In this document: positions 3,101 to 26,478 of the stretch, piece after piece
Position numbering within the stretch: the first letter of the stretch is position 1
Layout of the letters: the number at the start of each line of letters is the position of its first letter
Assembly: GCA_024277605.1 (NCBI GenBank)
Contig: JAJRUU010000168.1
Location: 1 to 26,478, forward strand
Source: a bacterium
GTDB lineage: Bacteria > SZUA-182 > SZUA-191 > JAJRXT01
DNA length: 26,478 nt
Reading direction: 5' to 3'
Made by a program: the position numbers and the translations under genes
The notes under the pieces: generated by a model
The model's database searches: none
What the model was told of the DNA's origin: nothing
The model's input: only the letters and a program-made list of their open reading frames with translations

Positions 3101-3662
3101 ACTAAAAAAATACACCGAAGCCGAGGCCGCTTTTTCTCAAGTACTCGGTAAGAGCGGGAGCAAGTTGATTAATCCCAGCTTACTTAAATTGGGAAATATC
3201 TACTTACTGACAGAAAGGTACGCTGAGGCGGCTGAGGCCTTCAACAAAATTTTGGCTAATGAGGCTGAAGAGCTGGAAGCTGATGCCCACTTTGGGTTAG
3301 GGGAAGTTAACTTAAAGCAACAGAAGGCTGATGCGGCGATCAAGGAATTCAGTATAGTAATGGATAAACATCCCAAACATTATTTGGTGCCAAGGGCTCA
3401 ATATAATTTGGGAGAAGCGTATTACCAAAACAAAGATTATAAAAAGGCAAGAGTGGAATATACCAAAGTTGCTATATTCTATCCTACATTAGAGCTGGCT
3501 GAGCAGGCGATAATGCAAAATGCAAGGTGCTATGAGGAACAACAGAAAAACGATAGGGCTATAAGGCAATATGAAAAGCTACTTAAAAAATATCCAGAGA
3601 GTAAATTCGCAGCAGCAGCACAAAAGCGTGTTGAGCAACTTTCCACAGCCAGCAGCAAATAA
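135..3662 (+). CDS. Large secreted tetratricopeptide-repeat (TPR, YbgF-like) protein, 1175 aa
   Basis: ATG with upstream GAGGAAAAA RBS. N-terminal signal peptide (hydrophobic core, AYA-GE cleavage-like site). About 30 tandem ~34-residue repeats, each with the pattern 'A..Y..A..Y...Y' characteristic of TPR/YbgF repeats. Long uninterrupted ORF. Confidence 0.85.
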   Translation: MFNKITYKRVCVAFILAFCFVVSAFSFNQSAYAGEVEKLFTLGAEFYSNSEYELAIEQFASLLEMAPKHSLASEAQYWISECQFNLKEYKTALAEYKKLIKQYPASDKSNEARLRIADCYYLTEDYAKAAVQYKKILKDNLEGVDPVDIHFWLGWCYVKLDDFESATVSFNQASASSDPQKAAESLFMLGESYYHLKKYTEASQSYLKVTQQYSDSKHLIAAQYALALSYQQLEKHDQAIELYKQVMQTHADSQEAKDSAFKIGLCYYEKGEHDKSITANQEALAKYPQNISVQDAKYLIAEALFQLKKYTESQTAYSNFLTDYPDSKYTDNVIYGLAWSYLSDNKPKKSIEYFRKIVTEQAKSTFAEESIFHIAEISYNEKDYNASIEAAKQLLTANPKSQYAANSQFLIALSNYQLKDFSAASAAFGKLIKDYPQSKYQAEAQFMLGETHYQLKQYTEAIAKGYQPVIKDHLDTEYADDAMMGMASAYNLLKDYDQALATAKNLLEKFPASEFAAEARFLMGENYFNKKSYEAAKAEFEKLIKEHPDSQYVGGAHYSTAEILYLLGEYEAADKEYQIVIDQFSDGKFVERAIYGSGYSAIKQKKFDDAIAQFKQLVVKFPETAYRQEVQLRIADAHYALDQYEEALAAYKKILDTDPKNESGYASDAQYWLALTLYKQQKYQDSIAEFEKFLSGYPKAESLAEAQFQIGVAYTDLKEYGKAIRAYQKVIDNYPESELVAKSMFAVGGSSILLSEKGAGDQKLDETQQANVKRSIEYFKQLVDKYPEHQLVAESHYLIGQSYFRLENYEAANNELKNFIEKYPKNDLADESTYKLGVGYNQLKQWDKAISTFDQVVSNKESKWIVEALYQKAGCLYNLKQHQDAIAVYKQIMEEHGQHTLAVAATYDLAWLYDELKESKAAFENFSTIADKHPDSVYWADSVYKGGEYYYKEKDYENAIAKFSQFTAKKPDSDLFDDAQFQIGQGYFELKKYTEAEAAFSQVLGKSGSKLINPSLLKLGNIYLLTERYAEAAEAFNKILANEAEELEADAHFGLGEVNLKQQKADAAIKEFSIVMDKHPKHYLVPRAQYNLGEAYYQNKDYKKARVEYTKVAIFYPTLELAEQAIMQNARCYEEQQKNDRAIRQYEKLLKKYPESKFAAAAQKRVEQLSTASSK

Positions 3663-6979: not shown

Positions 6980-9337
6980 TCAGGCAGTTTTGAGATTCAC
7001 CAGTTTCCCCTTCTGCCTCTGGTTTACGCTGACCATATATAACCCGAATTGGGAGGTTTTAAAGGGTGCTTGATACTTTCCGGTACCTATCTTTTTAAGC
7101 TTCAGGTATTGGCGCTGTTGATCAGGTCCCCACAGTACCGCTTCTAATTTCCCCATTATGCTGGAGTGAGATGCCAGGCTTACATCCAATACAGCCCCCT
7201 CGGGAGTCCGCTGGGCGGAAATATCCAATGCGGAATCAGCCTTCTGCTTCATGGCAAAGCGAATGACTTGCGACCAGAAGCGGCTGAAACTGGACCAGCC
7301 GATCCACTCGGCTGACCAGCGTCCATCTACGTCTGAGGTATAGGCGACAGTCTTGCCGAGTCCGTAGCGCCAAGTAGCCAGTATGGGGTCCTCCATGCCC
7401 CGGGTATCGGAGGTTAGCGCCAGCTCGGCCCCGGCTTTAGCAGTGGTAACCATATAGCCCTTTAGGGGGGGGATCTGGCTTTGTTTCATGCCTTTTAATG
7501 CTTTGCTCTCAGGGGACAGTTTGGGCGTTAAGGGTTTTTCCACAAAAGGTGATTTGGAAATAGCGCTTTCTATATCGGTTAAGAATACCTGGGGCAATTT
7601 ACTTACATCTTGCGGGTGGTGAAACAGTCCCTTCCCCATCTGGGATATCTTGGCCAGCAGATTAACATCGGCTTCAGGGCCAATGGCGATACTGGAAACA
7701 GTCATATGATCCTTGGCAATATCGCTGGCTAATTTATCAAAATCACCCCCGTAGGTTTTGCCGTCTGAAAGTAGAATAATGTGTTTTACCTGCATCGGCG
7801 ATTTTTCATGTTCTCTTTTTGCCTTAAGCGTTTGATAGGCTTGCTCCAGGGCTGGATATATATTGGTACCTCCTTGACCGGTACGGATGGTTTTTATCTT
7901 TTTTATGACGCTATCCCGATTGTTCCACAAAAACTGCAGATCCAACAACACATGGTGTTTGGAGTCGAACAGGATTATTCCCAGCATATCGTTATTCCGC
8001 AACTGATTGGCCACCTTCAGGGCTGCCTCACGGGCCAGGGCAATCTTCTGACCCTGCATACTGGAGGATATGTCAATGATGAGTACTAATAACATCTGTT
8101 TGAACTTATAAGAAATATTTTGACCCATGTTTACCGGCAGGATTTCTTCAATTGGCGTCTTGGTATAATCGCCGGCGCTGAAACTATTCTCTCCCCCGAT
8201 CATCACAAATCCTCCCCCTATATCGGAAACATAATCCTTTATCAATTGCATTTGTGATTCGTTGATTTGCGAGCGGGATATGTTGTTGAATACCAGGGCG
8301 TCAAATTGTGCCAGCTGCGATAACTTTTGGGGGATATGATGCTGGTCTTCAACTATTACATCCACCCCTTTTAGCTTCAACGCTTCACTTAAGAAAGAAC
8401 TGCGCCCACTATGGCCGTCGATACATAGAATTTTAGGTTTTCCGCCAGCCAATACCTGGGCCATTATTGTATTATTGCTCATATTAGTATCGCAGACAGC
8501 TTCGATGGAGGCGGTGTATTGGTAAGCGCCGGTTTTCAGCAACACCTCATCCTGGCTAAAAAGGTTGATTCCCGGTGAAAGAGTGAGCGAAGTTGTAAGA
8601 AGAGGCTCTTTGTTTTTTGAAATTTTTAATTTTGCCGGGCAGGGTTCCACCCCCAGATTGGCGATATTAGTCTTCAGGCTGAAAGTCTCTCCCAGCATTA
8701 CTTTTTTGGGTACGCTTAATTGCTCGATCAATACCTCCCGGAGGTGCTGTTGCGGTGGAAGGATTGGATATATCTTTATTCCTCTGTTCCTGGCTAAGCC
8801 AGCGGCGCTCAGTGCCTGACCGACATTCTCATTTCCATCTGAAAAGAGTACAATGCGGCCCACCGCATCCTCAGGGACGGTGGTCATACTCAAACGTAAA
8901 GCGGCTTCTATGTTGGTGAATTCTTCTCCCGGCCTATTCCACGAATCCCGGCCTGATATTTTATCCAGCGCCTCTGCCTTCTCAACCGGTTTTTGTTCGA
9001 GGTACGCCTGCTTACCAAAACTCAGCCAGGCTATCTTATCATCGCCTTGCATGGCTTTTATAGTGCGCTGGATATAATTTTTAGTCCACTCCCGACTGGA
9101 GGGAGAAATACTGTCAGAATTATCGGTAACGAATACCAGGTTTAATTCCTTGAACATCTTAAGTGGGAACTTTACCCCGGCCAACGCCAGTACAAGGAAG
9201 ATGATAATTAAGCTGCGTACTATGTTTAGCAGTTTAAACCGTAGCGGAGGAAACAGCTCTTTCTGCGCCAGGGAAAACTTCCAGAATATGGGAAGGATGA
9301 GCAGTAAGAGCAGATAATACGGCTGAGAAATCCACAT
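6980..9337 (-). CDS. Membrane-anchored double von Willebrand factor A (VWA) domain protein, BatA-like
   Basis: 785 aa. Two N-terminal TM helices (MWISQPYYLLLLLILPIFW..., SLIIIFLVLALAGV) as in BatA aerotolerance-type proteins. Two VWA/MIDAS-like segments ('LVFVTDNSDSIS' near the N-terminus and 'LLVLIIDISSSMQG...ILFDS' in the centre), separated by a flavodoxin/GATase1-like middle region. Confidence 0.7.
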   Translation of the reverse strand: MWISQPYYLLLLLILPIFWKFSLAQKELFPPLRFKLLNIVRSLIIIFLVLALAGVKFPLKMFKELNLVFVTDNSDSISPSSREWTKNYIQRTIKAMQGDDKIAWLSFGKQAYLEQKPVEKAEALDKISGRDSWNRPGEEFTNIEAALRLSMTTVPEDAVGRIVLFSDGNENVGQALSAAGLARNRGIKIYPILPPQQHLREVLIEQLSVPKKVMLGETFSLKTNIANLGVEPCPAKLKISKNKEPLLTTSLTLSPGINLFSQDEVLLKTGAYQYTASIEAVCDTNMSNNTIMAQVLAGGKPKILCIDGHSGRSSFLSEALKLKGVDVIVEDQHHIPQKLSQLAQFDALVFNNISRSQINESQMQLIKDYVSDIGGGFVMIGGENSFSAGDYTKTPIEEILPVNMGQNISYKFKQMLLVLIIDISSSMQGQKIALAREAALKVANQLRNNDMLGIILFDSKHHVLLDLQFLWNNRDSVIKKIKTIRTGQGGTNIYPALEQAYQTLKAKREHEKSPMQVKHIILLSDGKTYGGDFDKLASDIAKDHMTVSSIAIGPEADVNLLAKISQMGKGLFHHPQDVSKLPQVFLTDIESAISKSPFVEKPLTPKLSPESKALKGMKQSQIPPLKGYMVTTAKAGAELALTSDTRGMEDPILATWRYGLGKTVAYTSDVDGRWSAEWIGWSSFSRFWSQVIRFAMKQKADSALDISAQRTPEGAVLDVSLASHSSIMGKLEAVLWGPDQQRQYLKLKKIGTGKYQAPFKTSQFGLYMVSVNQRQKGKLVNLKTA

Positions 9338-11510: not shown

Positions 11511-12947
11511 TTAGAAGGGAGTATAGAGTTTACCGGCTAATTTGAGCAGGTGAAACTCGGGGGTGTTCCTGACCTGCCCATTTTTAAGCCGATAATGAGC
11601 CCATTTTTTTAGTGGCGCTAACCATGCCTGGGTTAAACCCGAGAACCTTTGTGGTTTGGTAAAAGTGAGCGCCCACATCAAGTGCACATCTTCAAAGTTA
11701 TAATCGCAGGCAGGCCGGAAAGACTCGGCTTTTGCAAAACAACGCTGTCCCCATTCCTCCAGAGTTTGAGGTTCATTGAAGGTCGGTAACTCTTTTATAG
11801 TGTTATATAGTTCAGTTCCCGGATAGGGGGTATAGTTGCTTAAGGTAAACTGCGTATTAGGGTTTGCCTCATATAATTCGACTGCCAGTTGTACTGTTTT
11901 TGCAACATCGTCGTCATTCTCAAAGGGGAAGCCCAGCATAAAAGAATACATGCCTTTGATATTATGCTTTTTTAACATCAAATTGGCGGCTTTAATGTGC
12001 TCTACCTTGATGCCTTTATTAATTTTATCTAATATCCTCTGAGAACCTGATTCAACTCCGAGGAAACAGTCATCCACTCCGGCTTCGGCCAGGGTGGAGA
12101 TTAGGGGTTCTTTGACATAGTCGATACGAATGCTAAAACCCCATTTAATCTTTAGATTTCTCTTTTTCAGCTCTCCGCAGAAATCTTCGGCCCGTTTTCG
12201 ATTGGTGAGGAAATTATCATCTACGAAATGAAATATGTCCACCTTAAACTTTTGCATTAAAAATTCGACTTCATCACAAATTTTCTTACCGCTTTTAGCC
12301 GATCTATGGCCTTTATTATACCCCTTGTTATAGCAAAACCGGCAAGTATGCGGGCAGCCGCGGGAACTGTGGAGCCGCAGGCAGCCATTCTGTATATAGT
12401 GCTCCATATTATGCTCAATGAGATGCCAGGCGGGCATGGGCAATGTTTCCATGTCCACCCATTCACGCACCGGATTCTCTATAATCTGACCCTCGTCTTT
12501 ATAAAAGATGCCCGGCAAGCCTTTTAAAGAGCCTCCCGCTTGTATTGTTTTCGCTAATTCTACCAGGGTAACTTCACCTTCATTAAGTACGATTATATCA
12601 ATGAGCGGATGTTTGATGGTCTGATGCGGCAGTAGTGAAGCATTGACTCCTCCCCAGACTATGGGTACCTGAGGGTCGGTCCGACGAATCAGCTCACATA
12701 TTTGCAGAGCGGAGATAATTTGATACCCCGTCATGCAGGTTATCCCTACCAGTATGGGTTTAGCCTGTACCCGGGCCTTGATTTGTTCCATAAAATCTTC
12801 CACCAGGCGGCAGTCTATTATTTCAACCTCATAGTCTGACTGCTCAAGGGGGGAGGCTAAAAACATCAGGTTTAAAGGAGGAAAAGCTTCCGCCAGTTTG
12901 GAGGTTCTTTCCTGTAGGAGAGGATATATTAATAAAATATCAGCCAT
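11511..12947 (-). CDS. Cobalamin (B12)-binding radical SAM enzyme (class B)
   Basis: 478 aa. GGAGGAATGAAAAATG RBS. N-terminal B12-binding Rossmann-like region ('ILVGITCMTGYQIISALQICELIRR...IVWGGVNASL'), then the radical SAM CxxxCxxC motif 'SRGCPHTCRFCYNKG'. Confidence 0.85.
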   Translation of the reverse strand: MADILLIYPLLQERTSKLAEAFPPLNLMFLASPLEQSDYEVEIIDCRLVEDFMEQIKARVQAKPILVGITCMTGYQIISALQICELIRRTDPQVPIVWGGVNASLLPHQTIKHPLIDIIVLNEGEVTLVELAKTIQAGGSLKGLPGIFYKDEGQIIENPVREWVDMETLPMPAWHLIEHNMEHYIQNGCLRLHSSRGCPHTCRFCYNKGYNKGHRSAKSGKKICDEVEFLMQKFKVDIFHFVDDNFLTNRKRAEDFCGELKKRNLKIKWGFSIRIDYVKEPLISTLAEAGVDDCFLGVESGSQRILDKINKGIKVEHIKAANLMLKKHNIKGMYSFMLGFPFENDDDVAKTVQLAVELYEANPNTQFTLSNYTPYPGTELYNTIKELPTFNEPQTLEEWGQRCFAKAESFRPACDYNFEDVHLMWALTFTKPQRFSGLTQAWLAPLKKWAHYRLKNGQVRNTPEFHLLKLAGKLYTPF

Positions 12948-16816: not shown

Positions 16817-17434
16817 ATGAATAGATCGCATAAAAAAAACATGACCGGGGTAATCCTGGCAGGCGGCATGGGACGTCGGCTGGGGCAATCCAAAACACAG
16901 GTACAGGTAGAGGGACAAGCGCTCATTAAGCGTGTTTTAGAGGCGCTCAGGCCACTGTTTGATGAGTTATTGATAATCGGTGGTGACCAAAGCCAGGCTG
17001 TACATGATTCAGGCGTTAAGAGGCTAACTGATGTAATCCCGAAAAAAGGCTCATTAGGCGGTATCTATAGCGGCTTGTGTTATACAGCGGCTTCCCGGAT
17101 ATTTTGCTTTGCCTGTGATATGCCATTTCTGGACGCAGGGTTAATTAAGCATATGATTAATAATGCTGCCTCCCAGGATGTGCTGATTCCTCAATTTGAC
17201 GGCGAGTTGCATCCCTTACACGCAATCTATAGCCAGGCTTGCCGAGAGCCTATAACACAACAGTTGGATATGGACGAGTTAAAGATTATAAATTTCTTTT
17301 CCCGGGTTAAAGTAAATTATGTGACTGCGGAGGAGATACGCCGACTAAATCCCGGCGGCTATTGCTTATTTAATATAAATACTCGCCAGGACTTACATAA
17401 CGCCCGTAAGATAGCCAAGAGGATACGCCATTAA
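16817..17434 (+). CDS. mobA: Molybdenum cofactor guanylyltransferase (MobA-like NTP transferase)
   Basis: 205 aa. 'GVILAGGMGRRLG' nucleotide-binding motif of the MobA family, of typical length. Confidence 0.78.
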   Translation: MNRSHKKNMTGVILAGGMGRRLGQSKTQVQVEGQALIKRVLEALRPLFDELLIIGGDQSQAVHDSGVKRLTDVIPKKGSLGGIYSGLCYTAASRIFCFACDMPFLDAGLIKHMINNAASQDVLIPQFDGELHPLHAIYSQACREPITQQLDMDELKIINFFSRVKVNYVTAEEIRRLNPGGYCLFNINTRQDLHNARKIAKRIRH

Positions 17435-17459
17435 TACGCCAGCGAATCAATGGCCAAGC

Positions 17460-18500
17460 TTGGAAAAAGCGCTTAACGGCTGCAAGAGACTGCTTATATT
17501 ACCCCACAACAACCCGGATCCGGATGCTATCTGTAGCTCACTGGCGCTTAAATATCTGGTTAAGGAAAAGTTGGGGGTGCGTTCTCAGATAGTATTAGCC
17601 GGTATTATCGGCCGCGCTGAGAATCAAGCCCTGGTCAGGGAATTAAAGATTAAATTTACCCCGGTGAATCAGATTGATTTCAAGGCTTATAAACATATTG
17701 CCCTGGTCGATACCCAGCCGGGATTCGGCAATAACAGCCTCCCTAAACATTGTATCCCCAGCATAGTTATTGATCACCATCCGCTTAAGCGCAGCATAAA
17801 GGGAAGCTTTATTGATGTGCGCCCGCATTATGGGGCCAATGCCACCATCATCACTGAGTACCTAATGGAAAATGAGCTTAAACCGCCACCGCGTATTTGC
17901 ACCGCCTTAAGCTTCGGCATTAGCTCTGAAACCGAAGATTTGGGACGGGACGCCACGCCTCATGATGTAACAGCCTTTGTGCAGTTATTCCCCAAGGTGG
18001 CTTTAAAGACCCTATCCCGCATCAAGAACCCCAGCCTAAGCAATGAATATTACTATAACCTTGATAGCGCACTGCATAACGCCTTTGTCTATAAACATGT
18101 CATTGGCACTACATTAGGTTGGGTAAATCAACCGGATGTGGTATCCCAGATAGCGGATATGCTCTTAAAAAAAGAACGTACCAGCTGGTCCATATGCCTG
18201 GCCCGTTATGATAGTAGATTATTTGTTTCTATCAGAACTCAAAACAGGAAGGCGAAGGCCGGAAAATTACTAAGAAAGATTCTAGCCGGTCGCGGCAGCG
18301 CCGGGGGACATGACATGATTGCCGGTGGACAGGTAAACTGTAGCGGCCAGGATGAGGCGGGTTATACCAAATTAGAGCAAGAAATAATAAGCAGGTTTTT
18401 TAAGGCCTTGGGCTTTAAGCAAGAAATCCAATTAAGAAAATTTTTGCCGCCTAACCCGAAAAATTCGGGTCTTGTTATGGGCGAATCGATATTTAGTTGA
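17460..18500 (+). CDS. nrnA: DHH/DHHA1 phosphoesterase, NrnA-like (nanoRNase/pAp phosphatase)
   Basis: 346 aa. 'LILPHNNPDPDAICSS' DHH motif region, 'VIDHH' and DHHA1 'GGHDMIAGG' motif. The only start in frame after the upstream stop is TTG at 17460. The last 16 codons lie inside the composite repeat at 18451-18630. Confidence 0.78.
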   Translation: MEKALNGCKRLLILPHNNPDPDAICSSLALKYLVKEKLGVRSQIVLAGIIGRAENQALVRELKIKFTPVNQIDFKAYKHIALVDTQPGFGNNSLPKHCIPSIVIDHHPLKRSIKGSFIDVRPHYGANATIITEYLMENELKPPPRICTALSFGISSETEDLGRDATPHDVTAFVQLFPKVALKTLSRIKNPSLSNEYYYNLDSALHNAFVYKHVIGTTLGWVNQPDVVSQIADMLLKKERTSWSICLARYDSRLFVSIRTQNRKAKAGKLLRKILAGRGSAGGHDMIAGGQVNCSGQDEAGYTKLEQEIISRFFKALGFKQEIQLRKFLPPNPKNSGLVMGESIFS

Positions 18501-18630
18501 AAATTATAAATTTATCAGTCTCCTATTCCTATCCCCTTGGGCAAACAAAGTTTTATTGGACGTTGGCCTATAAACCTTATCTCGCAAGGGGTGTCTTGCA
18601 AACCCAGCCTAAATTTATGAATAGGTCGGG
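18451..18630 (+). repeat. ~180-bp composite repeat, copy 1 (hairpin + ~95-bp spacer + inverted 73-bp element B1 at 18558-18630)
   Basis: Collinear and more than 95% identical to 19221-19287 plus 19508-19630. Overlaps the 3' end of the DHH gene. Confidence 0.9.
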
Positions 18631-18693
18631 TAAGGAATAACAGGCAACTTATCATTGACATTTAGAGTTATTTTTTATAAATTACTTAAAAGA

Positions 18694-18722
18694 TTGACAG
18701 CAGACAGAATAGCTAATGTATT
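18694..18722 (+). promoter_or_regulatory. Candidate tRNA promoter (TTGACA-N17-TGTATT) with AT-rich UP-like region; possible second TTGACA at 18655
   Basis: TTGACA at 18694-18699. Weak -10 at 18717-18722, 7-8 nt before the tRNA 5' end. A tttttataaattacttaaaa tract lies upstream. A second TTGACA at 18655-18660 is followed by an AT-rich -10-like tataaat. Confidence 0.35.
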
Positions 18723-18729
18723 TCTATGT

Positions 18730-18804
18730 GGTCCCATCGTCTAGCGGTTAGGACATCGCCCTCTCACGGCGGAGACAGGGGTTCGATTCCCCTTGGGACT
18801 ACCA
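18730..18804 (+). tRNA. tRNA-Glu (anticodon CUC), CCA encoded
   Basis: Manual cloverleaf. Acceptor GGTCCCA/TGGGACT (G1-U72 wobble). D-stem GTCT/GGAC with an 8-nt D-loop. Anticodon stem TCGCC/GGCGG with loop CTCTCAC. 4-nt variable loop. T-stem AGGGG/CCCCT with the TTCGATT loop. Discriminator A plus CCA. Confidence 0.85.
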
Positions 18805-18833
18805 AAATATATCGAGGAGTTAGCTGAAACGGC

Positions 18834-19208
18834 TTACTTTTCGGTAACAACTTGAGCTATGGCATAGTGTCTGGAATGGGATATGCTCAGGTAAATGCCC
18901 TTAATCTCCACGGTAGCTCTGTGTTTCTCCAGCTCATTATGCAATCTTACCTGGGGTTTGTTGCTATCCTTGGCATTAATAATCTCTATGTCCTTCCAGG
19001 AGATACTTCCCCTATAATCGAGGGCTTTGTATACAGCTTCCTTGGCGGCGAATTTACCTGCAAAATGTTGCTCTGAGCGGCTTTTTCCCAGACAGTAATC
19101 AATTTCCTGCTGGTTGAATACCCGGGTTATAAAAAGCTGGGCATGCTTTTTAATTAGGGCCGCTATGCGCCCGATTTCTACAATATCCACCCCCACCCCC
19201 ACAATCAT
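18834..19208 (-). CDS. acpS: Holo-[acyl-carrier-protein] synthase (4'-phosphopantetheinyl transferase, AcpS type)
   Basis: 124 aa. 'MIVGVGVDIVEIGRI', 'FAAKEAVYKAL' and 'ISHSRHYA' match AcpS conserved motifs. Confidence 0.85.
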   Translation of the reverse strand: MIVGVGVDIVEIGRIAALIKKHAQLFITRVFNQQEIDYCLGKSRSEQHFAGKFAAKEAVYKALDYRGSISWKDIEIINAKDSNKPQVRLHNELEKHRATVEIKGIYLSISHSRHYAIAQVVTEK

Positions 19209-19220
19209 ATACGGTTCCTC

Positions 19221-19630
19221 TCTAACCCGAAAAATTCGGGTCTTGTTATGGACGAATCGATATTTAGTTGAAAATTATAAATTTATCCAGTAGTGTCCGG
19301 TTAGGTTTTTGCACCAGCGGCAAAATGTCTTTTAGTTCTCTCTCCCCTCTGGGGAGAGAGTTAGAGTGAGGGGAAAACCCGGTTTTAAAATTCCCCTCAC
19401 CTTGATCCTCTCCCCCAAGGGAGAGGAAAAACAAGGAGTCTTGTGTTAGAAACTTACCGCAATTATTGACTTTTACCGTGTGCAAAAACTTGGAGCGGAC
19501 AACGCTGAAATTTATCAGTCTCCTGTTCCTATCCCCTTGGGCAAACAAAGTTTTATTGGACGTTGGCTTATAAACCTTATCTCGCAAGGGATGTCTTGCA
19601 AAACCAGCCTAAATTTATGAATAGGTCGGG
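19221..19630 (+). repeat. Composite repeat, copy 2, interrupted by a ~220-bp insertion (contains inverted 73-bp element B2 at 19558-19630)
   Basis: 19221-19287 equals 18451-18517 with 1 mismatch. 19508-19630 equals 18509-18630 with 4 mismatches. The two halves are separated by the insert at 19288-19507. Confidence 0.9.
19288..19507. mobile_element. MITE-like non-autonomous insertion (~220 bp) with imperfect ~27-bp terminal inverted repeats and a 9-bp target-site duplication (aaatttatc)
   Basis: Left end cagtagtgtccggttaggtttttgcac. Reverse complement of right end cagcgttgtccgctccaagtttttgcac (19/27 identical, terminal cag and gtttttgcac conserved). The insert is flanked by direct aaatttatc at 19279-19287 and 19508-19516. 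The uninterrupted copy 1 shows the empty site. The interior carries three GC-rich hairpins built from ctctcccc/ggggagag arms. Confidence 0.5.
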
Positions 19631-19640
19631 CTAAAAATAA

Positions 19641-20420
19641 TTACTTTAGCGGCAATATCCGGATCAAGGCTGCGGCTGCTGCGGCTGCCAGTTGATCAAA
19701 AGCGGCTGGATATTGATACACCCAGACCTTGGTTGAGGAGCTGCCCCTGCCGGTCCAGATTAACTCTCCCGTAGACATATCCCAAATCTGCCCCAGAATA
19801 GTAACCGAATAATCGGACGACCTGTTCCCGAAGGCCCAGACAAAAGACATTGAATTGTCATTTATGTTTGATATAATCACCAATTGAGGGATCATCAGGT
19901 ATCTGCAGTTTAAATAATCACCCAACTTTTTCAGAAAGTCAGCATTAACACTTAAATAGTTATAGCTACTTAGAAATTCCAGATAAGGCAGGCTTATATC
20001 TGACTGGCCGATAATGGCCTGCACCTGCTTTGGAGGAATTATAGTTATCCCGCTCTTGTTTTGCTTGAATTTGGCTAATAATATGTCGTTTGCGGTATTA
20101 CGAAAGCCTTCCATAGAAGTTTCCGTAGGCAGGGAAATCTCGGTATTTTTAATAATACGTGAGGGGGAATAAGGCGCCTCGGCAATCCTGGCGGTATCGG
20201 ATTTATTGTTTAGAGAGCTGCTACCGGCTGCCATTACTGAAAACAAGGCCAGCTTGCCCTCGATTCCTATATCAGGCTTAATCCTGTAAGACTCATCAGC
20301 CAGATGTTTAATTCCTGATGTTCCACAAGCGCCAGCCAAAAAGGTCAATATTAAACACCCAGCTATCCGCATAGTAGTTTTCATTGCCATTCCCCTACAA
20401 TTAAAGTGGTAATGTCTCAC
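19641..20420 (-). CDS. Exported protein of unknown function (signal peptide; possible lipoprotein)
   Basis: 259 aa. The probable true start is the third in-frame ATG (MKTTMRIAGCLILTFLAGAC-GTSG), 6 nt after AGGGGA, which would end the CDS at 20384. Signal peptide with an AGA|C cleavage/lipobox-like site. The Ser/Asn-rich mature part has no recognisable catalytic motif. Last gene of the carrier-protein operon. Confidence 0.55.
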   Translation of the reverse strand: MRHYHFNCRGMAMKTTMRIAGCLILTFLAGACGTSGIKHLADESYRIKPDIGIEGKLALFSVMAAGSSSLNNKSDTARIAEAPYSPSRIIKNTEISLPTETSMEGFRNTANDILLAKFKQNKSGITIIPPKQVQAIIGQSDISLPYLEFLSSYNYLSVNADFLKKLGDYLNCRYLMIPQLVIISNINDNSMSFVWAFGNRSSDYSVTILGQIWDMSTGELIWTGRGSSSTKVWVYQYPAAFDQLAAAAAAALIRILPLK

Positions 20421-20465
20421 TTTGTTCTAAATATAGTAAATTATATAATCAAATTTACCGAAATG

Positions 20466-21983
20466 CTAAGTCCCGCTTCCGTCTGTAAGGCGGCAGGGAA
20501 TGGGATTAGCTTGAGTTGCTTCAAGGAATAAATCCAGCCCCTGGCTGGTTTGTTGGCGCCTTATCTTGCCGCTGGCCGTTTTGGGCAATTGATTTACACA
20601 GACAAATTGCTTGGGCACCTTGTATGGAGCTAAGCGCTTATAGCAGAACCGCCGCAGATCTTGTAAATCCAAAGGCTTATTAAGCCCGTTTTTTAAAACA
20701 ATTTTTGCCACAGGCAACTGGCCATATTTTGGGTGATCTTTACCGTAAACCAGCGACTCATAAATCTGGGAGTACTGATTAAGCACGGCTTCAACTTCAA
20801 ACGGGAATATTTTTATGCCGATAAAATTAATTACATTCTGCTTACGCCCCACAATAGTCAAAAAACCAGTTTCATCGATTTTACCCAGATCGCCGGTTAT
20901 AAACCACCCATCCTCCAGAATAGCTTCCCGGTTTTGCCAGGGAGAGAAATAAGCATCCAGCATGCCTTTGCCTCTCACATAAACCCTTCCCACTCCGCTT
21001 GCATCTTGGTCAACAATTTTAATTTCATAATCGGGCAATATTTTGCCGACAGAATTGCGGTTATGCTGATTGGCGGAAAGATTGATAAATGGCAGCCCCA
21101 CTTCTATGATTCCATATGCCTGCGCCAATTCAAAACCAAATTTTTGAAAAAAAGCGCTGGCAGTTCCGTATGAAAGTTTTATGGTAGTGGAAACCGCTAA
21201 ACGGATACTCAGTAAAGATTCCGGGGACAGCAAATCCGAATGGGTTAACAAATCATAGTGAAAGGGTGAGGCATAGATAACGGTCGCCCGATATTTAGTA
21301 ATACTTTCCACCAGGGAATCGGGGAAGGGATGATGACAGAGAATAATAGTGGCTGCCCGGCGCAGAAAGAGCAGAATACTGACCACAAAATGAAAACTCA
21401 TGGACAAAACCCACAGAATTGAATCTGCTGAGGTTATCCGCAGACCCTTATCCGCAGCCTCGGTTCTTTGCATAATTGTTTCATGTGACAGGACGACCCC
21501 CTTACTCTTATCGGTAGTGCCGGAGCTGAACCGAATGAAGGCCGGATTGATTTTATAGTATGCTTGGGTGATTTTCCTCTTCACCTGTATCTTTTTAATA
21601 AAAAAGGTGTCGCTGGAAAGGCCGCAGCAAATAAATTTCTCAGCTCCGGCATAAGGGTAAAAATCTTTTTTAAACAGCAGAAAGTCTGCGCTAATCTCAT
21701 TTAGCACCTGCTCGATTTCTGCTGCGGTATAGTCCGCTGAAACAGGAACCGCTACTGCCGATATGGATAAAATGGCCAGGCTGGCGGCGATATAGTCAAT
21801 ACTATTGCCACAAAGTAAGCCTACCCGCTGAAAAGGGGCCACTCCCCCTTTTTTTAATAAACCGGCAATCTCCTGCGCTGCAGAAATCAATTCCGCATAT
21901 GACAGCGTACGTGTGTCTTCAATCAGGGCTGTTTTATGCGCAAAGTTCTGCGTCTCTGCTTTTATTAGTTGGAAAATGTTCAT
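20466..21983 (-). CDS. Adenylate-forming enzyme (AMP-dependent synthetase/ligase; acyl-ACP/acyl-CoA or fatty-acyl-AMP ligase type)
   Basis: 505 aa. Core motifs A3 'FSSGTTDKSKGVVLSH', A5 'YGIIEVG', A7/A8 'ITGDLGKIDETGFLTIVGRKQNVI' and A10 'PKTASGKIRR'. Start codon 3 nt after the stop of the upstream radical SAM gene. Confidence 0.9.
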   Translation of the reverse strand: MNIFQLIKAETQNFAHKTALIEDTRTLSYAELISAAQEIAGLLKKGGVAPFQRVGLLCGNSIDYIAASLAILSISAVAVPVSADYTAAEIEQVLNEISADFLLFKKDFYPYAGAEKFICCGLSSDTFFIKKIQVKRKITQAYYKINPAFIRFSSGTTDKSKGVVLSHETIMQRTEAADKGLRITSADSILWVLSMSFHFVVSILLFLRRAATIILCHHPFPDSLVESITKYRATVIYASPFHYDLLTHSDLLSPESLLSIRLAVSTTIKLSYGTASAFFQKFGFELAQAYGIIEVGLPFINLSANQHNRNSVGKILPDYEIKIVDQDASGVGRVYVRGKGMLDAYFSPWQNREAILEDGWFITGDLGKIDETGFLTIVGRKQNVINFIGIKIFPFEVEAVLNQYSQIYESLVYGKDHPKYGQLPVAKIVLKNGLNKPLDLQDLRRFCYKRLAPYKVPKQFVCVNQLPKTASGKIRRQQTSQGLDLFLEATQANPIPCRLTDGSGT

Positions 21984-21986
21984 GTT

Positions 21987-23426
21987 TTATTTTGACGGGT
22001 AATCCTGATAAATCTTTTTCAGGGCCATGATATATTTTGTACCGTAAATTATAGATTTTATTACTTCTGCAAAGGGCACCCGAACTTTATTAATCCTGAG
22101 CGGATTGCCCCTCCAACCTATGGTGTAAAGCCGGGCGAAGTGTTGGTAAAATGTTTTAATATCGAGCTTAGTGGGCAACAGGGTATGAAAGCAATCATAA
22201 AACAAATATGGGTCAGCACAGATAAAATCCGCTTTGTGCTTATACCAGAGCGCTGACCCTGGAGATGGCGAGAATACCGTAAAGGAAACCTCGGCCGGCA
22301 AAACATTAAGCACTTCTTTTTCCAGGCCCCTGAAATCCTGCAGCGAAAAGTTTGGATCGACCATAAAGGATGCGTGTAGAATTATGTCCAGTTCCCGCAA
22401 AATTGATACGGCTTTACGATTGGTTTCCACCGTGGTTCGTTTTTCATAATTACCAAGCCGTTTATCATCCATGGCTTCCAAACCGACATAAACTATACCC
22501 AAACCGACCTTTTTCCATAGCTTAAACAATTCCGGGCGGCTGATAATTGTATCGCTTCTGGCCCAGCTGACGAACTTTTTTTTTATGCCGCGCTCAATCA
22601 ACAGGTTTGCAATTTCCGTCATCCTGTTTGCATTTAAAAATGTCTCATCATCCACAAAATAAATATAATCTTCGCCAATCCCTTCAATTTCAGCTACCAC
22701 ATCTTCCGGAGTGCGCTGCAAATACTCGGAATGCATTATATAAGGCACCACACAAAAAGAACACGAAAAAGCACAGCCGTAAGATGTGCGGATGGTGGCG
22801 ATGCGGGGAAATATGGTGGATAATTTTTTCTCGGGGCTGGATGTCCACACAGAAAAATAGCGAGTGCGCTGTACTAAATCCCTGCGCGGCCGAGGTATAT
22901 CTCCGGGGCGGGGAAATTTCGCGGGTGGGGTGCTGGCTTTCACCTCAAAACCAGGATCCTTGACCGACAAGGCGACTTGTCCAAAATAGAGCGGCTCCCC
23001 CCGCTTGAAGCGACGGATGATCTCCCTGATAGCCGTTCCGCCCTCCCCGCGCACAATAATATCAATGTCCGCTATTGCATAATCCGCAGGCGCAATGGTG
23101 GCATGAATTCCACCCACAATTACCGTCGCCGAGGGGTCAATAGTCTTTGCAATATGGGCCAATTTTTTGACTATTGCAGCTTGCGTACTATATCCGGTAA
23201 GACCGATTATATGCGGTTTTTTAGCTTGCAATTCCCGCCGAAAAAGCCCAAGCGGGTCTTTCTCTAAACTTAAATCACAGATAAAAACCTGATCCTCATC
23301 CGGTACACCACCGGCCACAACTTCCAACTCTAATGGTTCCAGGTGCAGAAATTTTTTCAAATGCTCAGTCACCAGGAGTTGCGAGTGCGGTCTGACCAAG
23401 AGAATACGCAAGGGCTGATCCTGCAT
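21987..23426 (-). CDS. Cobalamin (B12)-binding radical SAM enzyme (class B), second copy in the window
   Basis: 479 aa. N-terminal B12-binding-like domain ('HIIGLTGYSTQAAIVKKLAHIAKTIDPSATVIVGGIHAT') then 'TSYGCAFSCSFCVVPY' CxxxCxxC. Confidence 0.85.
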   Translation of the reverse strand: MQDQPLRILLVRPHSQLLVTEHLKKFLHLEPLELEVVAGGVPDEDQVFICDLSLEKDPLGLFRRELQAKKPHIIGLTGYSTQAAIVKKLAHIAKTIDPSATVIVGGIHATIAPADYAIADIDIIVRGEGGTAIREIIRRFKRGEPLYFGQVALSVKDPGFEVKASTPPAKFPRPGDIPRPRRDLVQRTRYFSVWTSSPEKKLSTIFPRIATIRTSYGCAFSCSFCVVPYIMHSEYLQRTPEDVVAEIEGIGEDYIYFVDDETFLNANRMTEIANLLIERGIKKKFVSWARSDTIISRPELFKLWKKVGLGIVYVGLEAMDDKRLGNYEKRTTVETNRKAVSILRELDIILHASFMVDPNFSLQDFRGLEKEVLNVLPAEVSFTVFSPSPGSALWYKHKADFICADPYLFYDCFHTLLPTKLDIKTFYQHFARLYTIGWRGNPLRINKVRVPFAEVIKSIIYGTKYIMALKKIYQDYPSK

Positions 23427-23441
23427 TAACAGCCTCCCATC

Positions 23442-24656
23442 TTATTCTGTTTTAGCATAATGATAATTCCCATGCTTAACCCAATATGCGGCAGCCTGTC
23501 CCGCCTGTTCCCCCAAAACCATACAGGTTCCCATAACCCTGGTAGAGGCATAAGCCTCATGCGAAACGGAAATAATCCGTCCGGCACATAAAAGATTGTG
23601 GATATCTTTAACTTTCAGACAGCGAAAGGGGATCTCATAATAATCCCCGGCTTTTAGATATTTATAAAGCGTGCCCTTGTTTTTGTCCCATATTTCTATC
23701 GGCCAGGAATTCTTCAGCACCCCATCCTGAAATTTCCTTGCCCCCAGAACATCATCTTCGGTGAGCGTGAACTCCCCGCATATTCTCCGGCTTTCCCTGT
23801 CCATAACCCCCATTGAACTTCCGGCAATATAAGCAGCTTTGAAGGCCGACAGCCTGCGGCTTAAATAGCCAGTGGCATCTATGGCGTATTGCCGGGCTTC
23901 TTGCTCACGCTCAGCGCTACCTGCCCCATTAATGCTTAATTTGCAATAACCCTCATCCGGCGCATCTCCAGGGCTGTAACTTGAAAACCTTAAGACAGGG
24001 GGCAAAATATTCTCTTTCACCGCCAGGGCCAGACAATAAGGGACTTTAATCGACAACATCGCATCCTGATCCCGCAAGCCTTTTAATAAAATGGTGTAAG
24101 CCGCAAGTTGTATTTCATGTGCCGCTGATATATCATAAGCGGCTCCAGCCATGACAGACACCTCGCCATTGCCGGTACAATCGACTACCGCCTCGGGATA
24201 TATATCGTACTGTTTGGCCGAATGATAGACTGAGAGCCTATTAATCGCCTCTCTATTTTTACCTACCCCAATTGCGGTTGTGTTTAATAGAACATTTAAA
24301 TTTGACTCACCCAGACACAAAGAACTTAAACCATATTGCAGGGCAAACCAGGAATAAGGCAGGGCAAAAACCTTCCCCAGCCGGGTAACTTTTTTTTGCG
24401 GTGATAATTTATTTAAAATACTTACTATTTCTCTTACAATCCCCCCATTCAATGTTTCACTGGGCCAGGCCTTGCCGTTTAAGTATAAGCCGCAAATATA
24501 GCGTAACATTCCCCAGCCGCCCACACCACCCAGAACATTTTGTTTTTCCAATAAAATGGTGCGGGCGCCATTGCGGGCTGAGGCTAGTGCGGCTACTACC
24601 CCGGCAACGCCCCCGCCAACCACTAAAACATCACAATGGGTATCTTGGGTTAACAT
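23442..24656 (-). CDS. FAD-dependent oxidoreductase (PF12831-like)
   Basis: 404 aa. N-terminal '[36 protein letters not shown]' dinucleotide-binding fold. No WxWxIP halogenase motif seen. Confidence 0.78.
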
Positions 24657-24681
24657 ATCTTTTTAGTGAACAAAATCGGGC

Positions 24682-26013
24682 CTACAATCTGTCGATTAAG
24701 CCTCTTTCAAGCAGATCGACCTCTTCATCCGCTAACAATCCGTCAAGCCAAGTGATAATTGCATTTAACTGCCCGTTAGATGAGTTAAAAAATATCCCTA
24801 ACCCCGGCGGCACAGGAATCCGCGGCATATGAAAAATGTTTTTGATGTTCGCCCCCAGTAAATCTGGAAAGCGGTATGAACTTTTCCCCACATGGGAAAA
24901 GCAGAATGAAGCTATATTTCCACCAACCGGCAATTGGAACAGCTTGTTTAAAACAGGCAAAGGGGCAATTCGCAGCAGGGCGGAAGCCGCAAGCAGGTTA
25001 GCCGGAATCTGTGACTGCACCTGTTCGTACATCTGTGCTTTTATTTCCTTTAACAAGAGCTCCCTGCTTTTTAAGGTATCCACATTAATCTGGAAGAAAA
25101 ACATGGAAACATAGTTAAAGAACAATTCCTGTCTTATATCCTTTGCCGATCTCATATCCACCGAAACCGGAACCATATAGCTCTGGCCGGAGGCGCCCTT
25201 ACTTTCAAAAAACTCATGCATGGTTTGGACTACTGCGGCAAACAAATACGGCATTTCCATTAAATATCCCGCTACGGCATAAGCATTCTCATAAATCTTT
25301 TCGGTTTGCTCCCGGTCAAAGCAGATCGAACGAAACCGGAAACCCTTTTTTACCTCTGAATGTGGGAGCGGCAAATTCCTTACGGAGGTTTTGGAAAGGG
25401 CGATTAATCTACGGTTAATAGTTTTACCGGCAGCAAATTTATGCTTCCAGTTATCAAGATCAGCGGAGGCGGTTAAACAAACCCCCTTGGTAACTGCAGG
25501 ATCGCCGCCATCAGCAAAATATTGTTGGAATAAATCTAAAAATGCTTCTGCACCCCGGGCATCAAGCAGCCGATGATCAAAGGTCATGGCTAAACAACTT
25601 TGCCGGTCTTTGGTATAGACAAGATGAAAGGCTAAATGTTCATTTTTCCTTTTAAAGGGGCGGTTACTGCCCTCTTCCATCACAGATAACACGCTTTTTG
25701 GGGCGGCTGAATTTTCCAGCCGGTAAATATTAAGGTTCAGACCATTTTCAATATATTTTTTGGGAATTCGCCAATAGGGGGCCAGGGTATAATCGCGGGC
25801 CACCTGCCCTTGCACCACCGGAAATTCCTTGAGGAACCGGCTTAGGTAACTGCGCACCCGGGCCTCATCAACTTGACCATCCAGCATGAACACCAGTTGC
25901 GAGGCATTGCCCGCCACGGTTGATTTTTTTATTAAATAATCTATAACGCTCATTATCCAATCGAAGCCGGATAAATAGCGCCTGTTCTTGGATGCCAGGA
26001 CTGTCAAATTCAT
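24682..26013 (-). CDS. Hypothetical protein; candidate condensation/CAT-like (HxxxD) acyltransferase
   Basis: 443 aa, a size typical of stand-alone condensation/PapA5/WS-DGAT-type domains. 'FDHRLLDARG' at about residue 145 resembles the HHxxxDG active-site motif (second His and Asp retained) at the expected position. Located between the ACP and FAD oxidoreductase genes, with 5- and 25-bp gaps. Confidence 0.4.
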   Translation of the reverse strand: MNLTVLASKNRRYLSGFDWIMSVIDYLIKKSTVAGNASQLVFMLDGQVDEARVRSYLSRFLKEFPVVQGQVARDYTLAPYWRIPKKYIENGLNLNIYRLENSAAPKSVLSVMEEGSNRPFKRKNEHLAFHLVYTKDRQSCLAMTFDHRLLDARGAEAFLDLFQQYFADGGDPAVTKGVCLTASADLDNWKHKFAAGKTINRRLIALSKTSVRNLPLPHSEVKKGFRFRSICFDREQTEKIYENAYAVAGYLMEMPYLFAAVVQTMHEFFESKGASGQSYMVPVSVDMRSAKDIRQELFFNYVSMFFFQINVDTLKSRELLLKEIKAQMYEQVQSQIPANLLAASALLRIAPLPVLNKLFQLPVGGNIASFCFSHVGKSSYRFPDLLGANIKNIFHMPRIPVPPGLGIFFNSSNGQLNAIITWLDGLLADEEVDLLERGLIDRL

Positions 26014-26018
26014 AAAGC

Positions 26019-26270
26019 CTAAAGCCTTTTATTGACATAGGAAGCTAAAGCTGAGATTGTTTTAATATCTTCACGGGTTAAACCTGATTCTAGTAATTGC
26101 AAATTAAAATTGCTTTCAATAAACACAAATATCTCAACTAAGCCCAGAGAATCAATCCCCAGCTCAGGCAAAGGGGTCTGTGCCGTAATTGTGCTTTTAT
26201 CCAGCGACATTATATCGGTGACGGCTTGAATTAATTTTTCTTCTATTTCTTCCAAACTCATTTTATTCAT
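26019..26270 (-). CDS. Acyl/peptidyl carrier protein
   Basis: 83 aa, acidic. 'LGIDSLGLVEIFVFIE' with the phosphopantetheine-attachment Ser in the DSL context, followed by the helix typical of ACP/PCP. Confidence 0.8.
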   Translation of the reverse strand: MNKMSLEEIEEKLIQAVTDIMSLDKSTITAQTPLPELGIDSLGLVEIFVFIESNFNLQLLESGLTREDIKTISALASYVNKRL

Positions 26271-26325
26271 AAACGTAAACTGCCTCCAACCCGAAAAGGT
26301 AAATAGTTGCGATGATTGTTCTTAT

Positions 26326-26478
26326 CGGCCTGCTATCCCAATGTCTATAACCTTACCGTTTTCAAACTCAAGATGGTATGTAGCAACCCTATTTTTCCAG
26401 TACGTCCAGATATCCTGATCAATTGATGATGTTCTATGAAAAGCAGGATACCCCAAAGCGACAATAACCGCTTTTTTA
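26326..26478 (-). CDS. 3' end of an upstream gene (partial, 51 codons), possibly a nitroreductase-fold protein
   Basis: Minus-strand frame open from the window edge to TAA at 26325-26323 (...KAVIVALGYPAFHRTSSIDQDIWTYWKNRVATYHLEFENGKVIDIGIAGR*). The 'ALGYPA' segment resembles the conserved C-terminal strand of nitroreductase-family proteins. Only a fragment is visible. Ends 53 bp before the ACP start codon. Confidence 0.3.

Follow-up and report, generated by a model that had tools for sequence, protein, structure and literature searches.

Which pathway is encoded by the six co-directional minus-strand genes at 19641–26270 of contig JAJRUU010000168.1, and how much of that pathway lies within the 26,478-nt stretch analysed here (the window)? 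Inspection of the letters without database searches (the sequence-only reading) had described these genes as an undescribed, small tailoring operon dependent on a carrier protein. All six open reading frames (ORFs) were confirmed at their coordinates, and their domain assignments were borne out by Pfam and NCBIfam. Our analysis showed that five of the six genes, encoding an acyl carrier protein (ACP), a condensation-like (C-like) protein, a flavoprotein, a radical S-adenosylmethionine (SAM) enzyme, and an ANL-superfamily enzyme, are a genuine conserved core, beyond chance. In the reading that we favour, with somewhat better than even confidence, the window covers the 3′ half of a conserved, ~16-kb biosynthetic cluster of the lipid or type II polyketide synthase (PKS)-like kind, which belongs to strictly anaerobic Nitrospirota (Thermodesulfovibrionia) and Desulfobacterota.

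The core begins with the gene for ACP2, a dedicated acyl carrier protein of 83 amino acids (aa) with Ser41 in the motif GIDSLG (26019..26270, minus strand, as for all the genes of this series; PF00550 and PF23297). It is followed by the genes for a standalone condensation-superfamily protein of 443 aa (24682..26013), assigned by its predicted fold and its DHxxxDxxG and FFN motifs, a flavin adenine dinucleotide (FAD)-dependent oxidoreductase of 404 aa (23442..24656; PF12831, 248.5 bits), a class B (cobalamin-binding) radical SAM enzyme of 479 aa (21987..23426; PF02310 and PF04055), and an ANL-superfamily adenylating enzyme of 505 aa (20466..21983; PF00501 and PF13193, with A3, A5, A7, and A10 motifs). 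These genes are separated by 5, 25, 15, and 3 bp, in that order. The spacing of 3–25 bp originally described for the whole series therefore applies to these five genes but not to the sixth, which follows the ANL gene at 45 bp when read from a GTG start or at 81 bp when read from an ATG start; the ATG start corresponds to the public 247-aa call and agrees with the homologues. Upstream, ACP2 is preceded by 51 bp (53 bp in the sequence-only reading) and then by a partial gene (26322..26477, minus strand), of which the 3′ end only, 51 codons and a stop codon, is present before the window edge, 208 bp upstream of ACP2. Promoter and terminator scans of the window gave background level only.

The conservation of this arrangement was evaluated in a one-genome-per-species scan for the 443-aa protein, which returned 104 relatives. 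The best 80 of the 104 loci, mostly from metagenome-assembled genomes (MAGs), were analysed; the locus counts reported here refer to loci with enough flanking DNA only and to matches on the same strand that had ≥30% identity and ≥50% coverage. ACP2 adjoined the C-like homologue, directly upstream, in 75/75 loci, and the flavoprotein (72/72), the ANL enzyme (56/57), and an HpnR-like radical SAM enzyme (46/57) were likewise found beside it. In contrast to this core synteny, the sixth gene stood beside the module in 1/50 loci, that of the closest relative only, and acpS in 0/48 loci; therefore, the real unit is the five-gene core. The expectation that the gene neighbourhood would be conserved thus held for five genes, co-conserved in the 80 loci, and failed for the sixth. 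In the closest relative (L001/L004; unclassified MAG Dive96_bin3.184), the six shared proteins were 76–84% identical to those of the window.

The 80 loci comprised ~49 from Nitrospirota/Thermodesulfovibrionia, 6 from Geobacterales/Desulfuromonadales, ~11 from Desulfobacterales and their relatives, including Desulfonema limicola and Desulfobacterium sp. N47, and ~10 from unclassified 'delta/proteobacteria'. No Planctomycetota were present among the best 80 of the 104 genome matches. One locus deposited as 'uncultured Methanosarcinales archaeon' (L073, CAZSRD010000011.1) has the full bacterial-type cluster with two copies of the small exported protein gene described below, and its archaeal label probably stems from faulty binning and not from a true presence in archaea.

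Each relative with enough flanking DNA carried more conserved genes 5′ of the five-gene core. A ketosynthase (KS) resembling a chain-length factor (CLF-like KS, PF13723) was found upstream in 58/63 loci, a canonical KS in 52/55, a second carrier protein (ACP1) in 46/50, an LpxL-type acyltransferase (LPLAT) in 44/50, a GT2-DUF2062 glycosyltransferase in 42/49, and a PF01522 deacetylase in 34/53. In addition, 36/46 loci contained a TIGR04072-like B12 radical SAM gene ~7 kb upstream, and the product of one such gene, in the Thermodesulfovibrionales locus L002, scored 632.8 bits on TIGR04072 'rSAM_ladder_B12' (cut-off 360). The KS consensus retains the Cys/His/His motifs and the CLF-like consensus is without them; a KS next to a KS lacking catalytic residues, together with a dedicated ACP, was thus found in the relatives, outside the window itself. 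These results overturned the view that the unit has no KS genes and is a self-contained tailoring operon. Because KS and CLF genes lie directly upstream in the relatives, the module appears to be coupled to elongation resembling that of type II PKS or fatty-acid synthase (FAS) systems.

Clustering of the ORFs of the loci yielded a canonical gene order, in which the 5′ part reads KS, short KS-like, B12 radical SAM, TIGR04072 B12 radical SAM, GT2-DUF2062, LpxL-like acyltransferase, ACP1, and (deacetylase), and the 3′ part reads KS, CLF-like KS, (small exported protein), ACP2, C-like, flavoprotein, HpnR-like B12 radical SAM, ANL, and (HpnJ-like B12 radical SAM), the last of these being present 3′ of the ANL gene in 28 related loci. 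In the closest relative, the order is GT2, LPLAT, ACP1, KS, methyltransferase, CLF, ACP2, C-like, FAD enzyme, radical SAM, ANL, and the 247-aa protein. The partial gene at the window edge aligned with the C-terminus of a family of ~190–230-aa signal-peptide proteins (GYPPxHKT...W.YW motif), which sits between the CLF-like KS and ACP2 in 12 related loci, with matches at −0.4 to −0.7 kb; a Pfam search with a full-length member of this family gave no match. The assignment of the window to the 3′ half of the ~16-kb cluster follows from the upstream genes of the relatives and from this match of the edge gene to the small exported family, and the earlier suggestion that the unit reaches beyond the window is upheld by the same conserved upstream genes. 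The gene families conserved around the related loci included no ketoreductase (KR), dehydratase (DH), thioesterase (TE), LolA-like, or RND family.

Some relatives carried further genes in or around the cluster. In 13 loci, the cluster was followed just downstream, mostly on the opposite strand (e.g., L028:17117-17737, minus strand), by a gene for a PagL-like beta-barrel protein of the outer membrane (lipid A 3-O-deacylase, PF09411), which hints that the cluster product is connected with lipid A or the outer membrane. Some clusters (L002:4665-6077, L012, L026, L044, L050, L053, and L074) additionally encode a HemN/ChuW-like class C radical SAM protein (TIGR04107, 182 bits, below the cut-off); class C radical SAM enzymes catalyse cyclopropanation in jawsamycin-type pathways. 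Finally, on the Thermodesulfovibrionales contig L002, a BcrAD_BadFG gene and two HGD-D/DUF2229 genes (16845-20039, minus strand) lie directly 3′ of the cluster. Their architecture presumably resembles the anaerobic plasmalogen synthase PlsA/PlsR type, and they may be coincidental neighbours.

The 443-aa protein is the signature gene product of the module. A total of 388 word-sharing homologues at ~45–77% identity were retrieved, all of them unnamed or 'hypothetical', and an exhaustive profile search extended the family to 926 representatives at 50% identity. No Pfam family, PF00668, PF03007, and PF06974 included, matched the protein at E ≤ 0.01, and a precomputed PF00668 match was present in 3/120 homologues listed. 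The wax ester synthase/diacylglycerol acyltransferase (WS/DGAT) model TIGR02946 gave 16.5 bits (E 0.003) over the C-terminal half only and did not reach its cut-off of 309.95. Since its scores lie below both thresholds, the protein is not a member of PF00668 or TIGR02946. The segment FDHRLLDARG occupies residues 145–154, and D146-H147-x3-D151-x2-G154 was invariant in 37 sequences, as was an FFN motif at a C5-like position. The family thus retains the catalytic second His and the Asp, with the first His replaced by Asp, as in the DHRxxDG motif of E2 acyltransferases; this E2 DHRxxD motif was also the sole sequence-level signal in a profile search of the PDB. By comparison, PapA5 and acyltransferases of the WS/DGAT type carry HHxxxDG.

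The fold of the protein was predicted with AlphaFold2 using 37 homologues. The model (predicted local distance difference test [pLDDT] score 87.1, predicted template modelling [pTM] score 0.87) displayed a two-lobed, V-shaped fold like that of chloramphenicol acetyltransferase (CAT), and a Foldseek search of the PDB returned almost exclusively condensation-family structures, with AzeD at the top (8S6L, E 1.8e-19, TM 0.73–0.75). The V-fold that the sequence-only reading had expected from structure prediction was therefore found, together with a conserved His-Asp motif, and the model identifies the 443-aa protein as a bona fide member of the condensation/CAT superfamily. AzeD of Pseudomonas aeruginosa is a standalone C-family dehydratase and the founder of a 'C-standalone' clade reported with 35 homologues, and its substrate is a free bicyclic carbamate in a nonribosomal peptide synthetase (NRPS) pathway (bioRxiv 10.64898/2026.07.17.738954). 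The 443-aa family differs in several respects: it shares 14–16% identity with AzeD, it carries DHxxxD where AzeD carries PHxxxD, and its 926 representatives, as opposed to 35 homologues, are always located beside ACP, ANL, and lipid-type radical SAM genes. At this identity, the function of AzeD is not transferable to the 443-aa protein, but its example makes a non-transferase role conceivable. Even divergent family members (~200–240 bits) were still flanked by ANL, ACP, and TIGR04072-like radical SAM genes, which ties the family to ACP-dependent radical SAM chemistry generally.

The carrier protein separates the unit from housekeeping type II FAS (FAS-II). The Asp-Ser pair of ACP2 was invariant in 58 homologues, and the protein scored 33.9 bits against the AcpP equivalog TIGR00517 (cut-off 70.45), with the other AcpP models also below their cut-offs. 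Moreover, no fabD, fabG, or fabH genes flank ACP2 in the window or in the 80 related loci. The ACP2 unit is distinct from housekeeping FAS-II, in keeping with the original description of a carrier-protein-dependent unit that is not a housekeeping FAS, to which the absence of a fabD/G/F context also speaks. The idea that the genes are juxtaposed by chance, or belong to housekeeping fatty-acid synthesis, accommodates the sixth gene and acpS, which are indeed accidental neighbours. For the core, however, chance is refuted by the near-perfect five-gene synteny in 80 species representatives from at least two phyla, and the housekeeping version is countered by an ACP under all AcpP cut-offs and by the lack of fabH/D/G in the window, so that the probability left to this idea is practically negligible.

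The ANL enzyme contains both domains of its superfamily (PF00501, 185 bits; PF13193, 66 bits) and the motifs SSGTT at residue 153, YGIIE at 290, TGDLG at 363, and PKTASGK at 467, the last with the A10 Lys. Its nearest NCBIfam and PDB relatives were acyl-, aryl-, and dicarboxylate-CoA ligases rather than NRPS A domains, and none reached its cut-off. By analogy with aryl polyene (APE) clusters, the enzyme is the probable loader of ACP2. An ANL enzyme, a carrier protein, and a C-fold protein are, however, also the triad of minimal NRPS logic, and the locus could accordingly be read as a minimal NRPS-like pathway to a lipoamino acid or amide, with the ANL enzyme placing an activated amino acid on the carrier and the C-like protein catalysing amide formation with an acyl donor. 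The A domain of LgrA was among the PDB matches of the ANL enzyme (125.9 bits), and some homologues of the C-like protein are named 'NRPS condensation-like' by JGI. Against this stand the better scores of the ANL enzyme with acyl-, aryl-, and dicarboxylate-CoA ligases than with A domains, the preference of the carrier protein for ACP models over those of peptidyl carrier proteins, the lack of a PF00668 match in the 443-aa protein, and the constant partners of the core, which are KS/CLF, LPLAT, and lipid-type radical SAMs. We regard an NRPS-like pathway as quite improbable, and the statement of the sequence-only reading that the unit is not a canonical NRPS was confirmed.

The 479-aa enzyme belongs to class B of the radical SAM enzymes by its domains and motif, as previously proposed, with PF02310 at residues 30–136, PF04055 at residues 213–367, and CAFSCSFC (CxxxCxxC) at residue 218; cobalamin binding is predicted, and the CxxxCxxC motif was kept in 49 homologues. 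Its best curated family is HpnR (TIGR04367; 204 bits over residues 7–435, cut-off 650), of which it is not a member, and it is likewise not a member of TIGR04072 (57.6 bits, cut-off 360). Like HpnR, the hopanoid C-3 methylase, it has a CxxxCxxC-bearing radical SAM core after its B12-binding domain. The enzyme differs from HpnR in its score far under the cut-off, its ACP/KS setting, and the lack of hopanoid neighbours: neither the window nor the families conserved at the related loci included hpn or shc genes. Because it is embedded in an ACP/KS cluster, its substrate is likely an acyl chain rather than a triterpenoid. In three deltaproteobacterial loci without the HpnR-like enzyme (L051, L054, and L060), the region following the ANL gene, ~4–5.3 kb downstream of the start of the C-like gene, encodes a class I SAM methyltransferase (PF13649/PF08241) and a secreted protein of the YceI-like, lipid/polyisoprenoid-binding kind (PF04264, 168 bits). 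With these genes, the methylation step may have been replaced non-orthologously and a lipid carrier added, and the substitution lends weak support to methyl transfer as the role of the radical SAM enzyme.

The flavoprotein has a GxGxxG motif at residue 14, and its AlphaFold2 model (pLDDT 82.7) adopted a two-domain GR2-type fold. Sequence matches to solved structures covered the dinucleotide-binding motif only. By analogy, the protein probably carries out redox chemistry on C–C/C=C bonds, and oxygenation is not likely in these anaerobes.

The upstream genes of the relatives invited comparison with clusters known from anammox and sulfate-reducing bacteria. Extended FAS-II clusters with radical SAMs, non-canonical FabF paralogues, a glycosyltransferase, and a ligase have been described in Kuenenia (kuste3335-3352), Desulfotalea, Geobacter, and Pelobacter (Rattray 2009, PMC2649909). 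The list for Kuenenia comprises a glycosyltransferase, a phytoene desaturase, methylases, FabZ, FabG, two radical SAMs, a phenylacetyl-CoA ligase, FabF, a methylase, a non-canonical FabF, FabF, two ACPs, and a deacetylase-like protein (Javidpour 2016, PMC4790861). Like kuste3335-3352, the relatives of the window contain a TIGR04072 radical SAM and a second B12 radical SAM, a glycosyltransferase, two ACPs, a deacetylase-like gene, and a canonical KS beside a KS without active-site residues; moreover, the closest relative has a UbiE-like methyltransferase gene between two KS genes, as in kuste3346-3348. On these sequence features, the balance tips towards the cluster belonging to the TIGR04072 class that antiSMASH labels 'ladderane'. 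The resemblance to ladderane-type pathways, introduced in the sequence-only reading as an analogy of gene classes, thus proved stronger than supposed, given a full-scoring TIGR04072 protein and a kuste3335-3352-like layout in the relatives. The module itself differs from the published clusters. In the Kuenenia and Desulfotalea clusters as described, the flavoprotein is phytoene-desaturase-like (PF01593), the ligase is of the PaaK/F390 type, and FabZ, FabG, and an MMPL-like membrane protein are also encoded. In the present module, by contrast, the flavoprotein belongs to PF12831 and the ANL enzyme to PF00501, a standalone C-domain protein and an HpnR-like radical SAM are present, and FabZ and FabG are absent; compared by list, the published Kuenenia genes include no C-like protein. 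The term 'undescribed' is accordingly only partly apt: discussion of the cluster class goes back to 2009, whereas the ANL-ACP-C-flavoprotein-radical SAM module and the 443-aa family seem to lack any earlier description or annotation. The locus represents a known cluster class with a distinct accessory module, to which a C-domain family without annotation belongs.

The presence in the relatives of a TIGR04072 'rSAM_ladder_B12' member and of the kuste3335-3352-like layout raises the further question of whether the cluster makes genuine ladderane (cyclobutane) lipids. The carriers are Nitrospirota and Desulfobacterota and not anammox Planctomycetota. In addition, the cluster now favoured for true ladderane synthesis, and regarded as exclusive to the anammox producers, is another one, Cluster I (kuste3603-3608, with amxFabZ and PDH). 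Desulfotalea psychrophila carries a related cluster yet makes no ladderanes (PMC2649909), and antiSMASH 'ladderane' calls in Desulfobacterota and other non-anammox phyla have been reported as unexplained (PMC9902471, PMC11968836). Ladderane production by this cluster is therefore very improbable.

A closer mechanistic template, judged by analogy, is provided by the APE clusters, in which ApeH loads the starter acid directly onto the ACP, ApeO/ApeC form the KS/CLF pair, and the LPLAT ApeD and the glycosyltransferase ApeJ serve envelope anchoring (PMC8253772). The features shared with the cluster, as seen in the relatives, are an ANL enzyme that is probably an acyl-ACP synthetase, KS/CLF (PF13723), two ACPs, an LpxL-type acyltransferase, and GT2. 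Unlike APE clusters, it has no dedicated KR, DH, or thioesterase and no LolA/LolB-like or RND export genes, and it contains three to five B12 radical SAMs, the C-domain protein, and the PF12831 flavoprotein instead. The likeness is one of logic and gene families, not of aryl starter or polyene product, and the cluster does not qualify as an APE cluster.

Taken together, these comparisons suggest the following mechanism. The ANL enzyme would adenylate a carboxylic acid and load it directly onto ACP2, as ApeH does in APE clusters, and the KS/CLF pair would elongate the tethered chain with malonyl units. The class B radical SAM enzyme or enzymes would act on unactivated carbons of the chain, most likely by C-methylation, which is favoured because the enzyme is HpnR-like and a class I methyltransferase takes its place at some loci. 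The flavoprotein would oxidise or reduce a C–C/C=C bond and so adjust saturation; an O2-dependent monooxygenase is unlikely because the hosts are anaerobes. Using His147, the C-domain protein would then transfer the completed acyl chain from its ACP2 tether onto an acceptor with a hydroxyl or amino group, plausibly a (de-N-acetylated) glycolipid anchor made by the GT2-DUF2062 protein, the deacetylase, and the LpxL-like acyltransferase. The product would be an unusual, probably branched, envelope glycolipid or acyl lipid. We consider this overall explanation, cluster membership and mechanism combined, to be fairly probable. The stronger version, a novel pathway in which B12 radical SAMs modify the ACP-tethered chain by methyl branching or C–C bond formation and a new standalone C clade installs it on an envelope glycolipid, is put forward tentatively, as a possibility that we would not bet on.

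A different division of labour within the same cluster, the leading alternative, was also weighed. The C-like protein could be an AzeD-like dehydratase and the flavoprotein an enoyl reductase (ER) or desaturase, with off-loading left to the LpxL-like acyltransferase; the module would then supply the missing beta-carbon processing. As in AzeD, the first His of HHxxxDG is lost in the family, no KR, DH, or ER families are conserved in the cluster, and the best fold match of the flavoprotein is geranylgeranyl (C=C) reductase-like. The identity to AzeD is only 14–16%, however, transferase-like conservation is seen in both the FFN (C5-like) motif on the acceptor side and the E2-like DHRxxD motif, and there is no ketoreductase to make the hydroxyl that a dehydratase would require. 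We judge this division of labour to be unlikely, and retain acyl transfer as the preferred role of the C-domain protein.

Several points weigh against the explanation that we favour. The window stops 208 bp upstream of ACP2, and its KS/TIGR04072 half is deduced from relatives. The cluster is without a dedicated KR, DH, or thioesterase, so that its elongation chemistry is not explained. The deacetylase was found in just 34/53 loci, and the HpnR-like radical SAM enzyme is absent from ~20% of the loci. At the level of individual proteins, the best structural neighbour of the C-like protein is a dehydratase and not a transferase; the best PDB fold match of the flavoprotein, the geranylgeranyl-reductase-like Ta0516, is weak (TM ~0.5) and was not used to assign a reaction; and the nearest solved relatives of the ANL enzyme, oxalyl- and malonyl-CoA synthetases and MenE, are uninformative on its substrate, with fatty-acid-CoA ligases also below their cut-offs. 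The evidence on the members of the cluster consists of sequences and predicted structures.

The locus represents a compact, highly conserved sub-module in one lineage of the 'ladderane'-labelled clusters of non-anammox anaerobes. As a five-protein system, it offers a tractable entry into radical SAM chemistry on ACP-tethered chains, a field described as almost unexplored by a 2026 review, and into the lipids of uncultured sulfate- and metal-reducing anaerobes. If the proposed pathway of radical SAM enzymes and a new C clade is true, the branched or cross-linked acyl lipids made without O2 by Nitrospirota and Desulfobacterota would constitute a new class, and the pathway would also account for the product of many non-anammox 'ladderane' biosynthetic gene cluster calls. 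The cluster is one orphan among many, and its value is that of a lead rather than a discovery.

Elsewhere in the window, a second class B radical SAM gene (478 aa; 11511-12947, minus strand) is located 7.5 kb downstream of the module, with a heparinase II/III-like gene and hisG as neighbours. The possibility that it is a displaced cluster member was unconvincing: its link to the HpnJ-like group arose by single-linkage clustering only, at ~29% identity (tblastn), and its top NCBIfam match was BchE (195 bits, below the cut-off). It is probably unrelated to the module. The other window content (coordinates including 135-3662, plus strand, and 6980-9337, minus strand) is ordinary and includes genes for a 1175-aa tetratricopeptide repeat (TPR) protein, a UbiA prenyltransferase, a DUF362 protein, an EamA transporter, a VWA/GATase1-like 785-aa protein, the heparinase II/III-like protein, HisG, a Band-7 protein, a malate/lactate dehydrogenase, NDK, a MobA-like NTP transferase, and a DHH phosphoesterase. 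None of these remaining genes is of a further lipid-cluster type.

The sixth gene (19641..20384, minus strand) encodes a predicted lipoprotein of 247 aa with a signal peptide ending in ...FLAGAC, whose start is M13 of a 259-aa ORF; it is not a conserved member of the module. Pfam and NCBIfam gave no match for this protein, and a search of 5.8 billion clusters returned 16 homologues only. Homologues at 52–60% identity had three readable contexts, next to a PMT_2 glycosyltransferase gene, a leucyl-tRNA synthetase gene, and genes for EF-G and a metallo-beta-lactamase-fold protein, respectively. These unrelated contexts, together with its presence in 1/50 loci, led us to reject the sixth gene as an envelope-delivery component. 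The holo-ACP synthase gene acpS (18834-19208, minus strand) lies 432 bp downstream of the sixth gene, against 430 bp in the initial description, and was likewise rejected as a dedicated phosphopantetheinyl transferase (PPTase), being adjacent in none of the 48 loci. The lipoprotein gene and acpS are chance neighbours. With both outside the system, the two arguments that the sequence-only reading had drawn from them, delivery of the product to the envelope by an exported last gene and the participation of an acpS 'next door', both fall.

The DNA around acpS is itself unusual. A direct repeat of ~190 nt (18451-18640 and 19222-19640) brackets acpS and a tRNA-Glu(CTC) gene (18730-18804, plus strand); a tRNA was the sole match in an Rfam scan of the window. 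Copy A consists of the final 50 nt of the DHH/DHHA1 gene and the DNA downstream of it. Copy B consists of 19222-19287 (98% identical) and 19508-19640 (94%), split by an insert of ~220 nt that holds a 31-nt imperfect inverted repeat (19345-19375/19391-19421), and ends precisely where the lipoprotein gene has its stop codon. This arrangement suggests either that a local duplication or insertion put tRNA-Glu and acpS at this position or that the region is an assembly artefact, and the 107-aa ORF at 19264-19587, inside the repeat DNA, is probably spurious.

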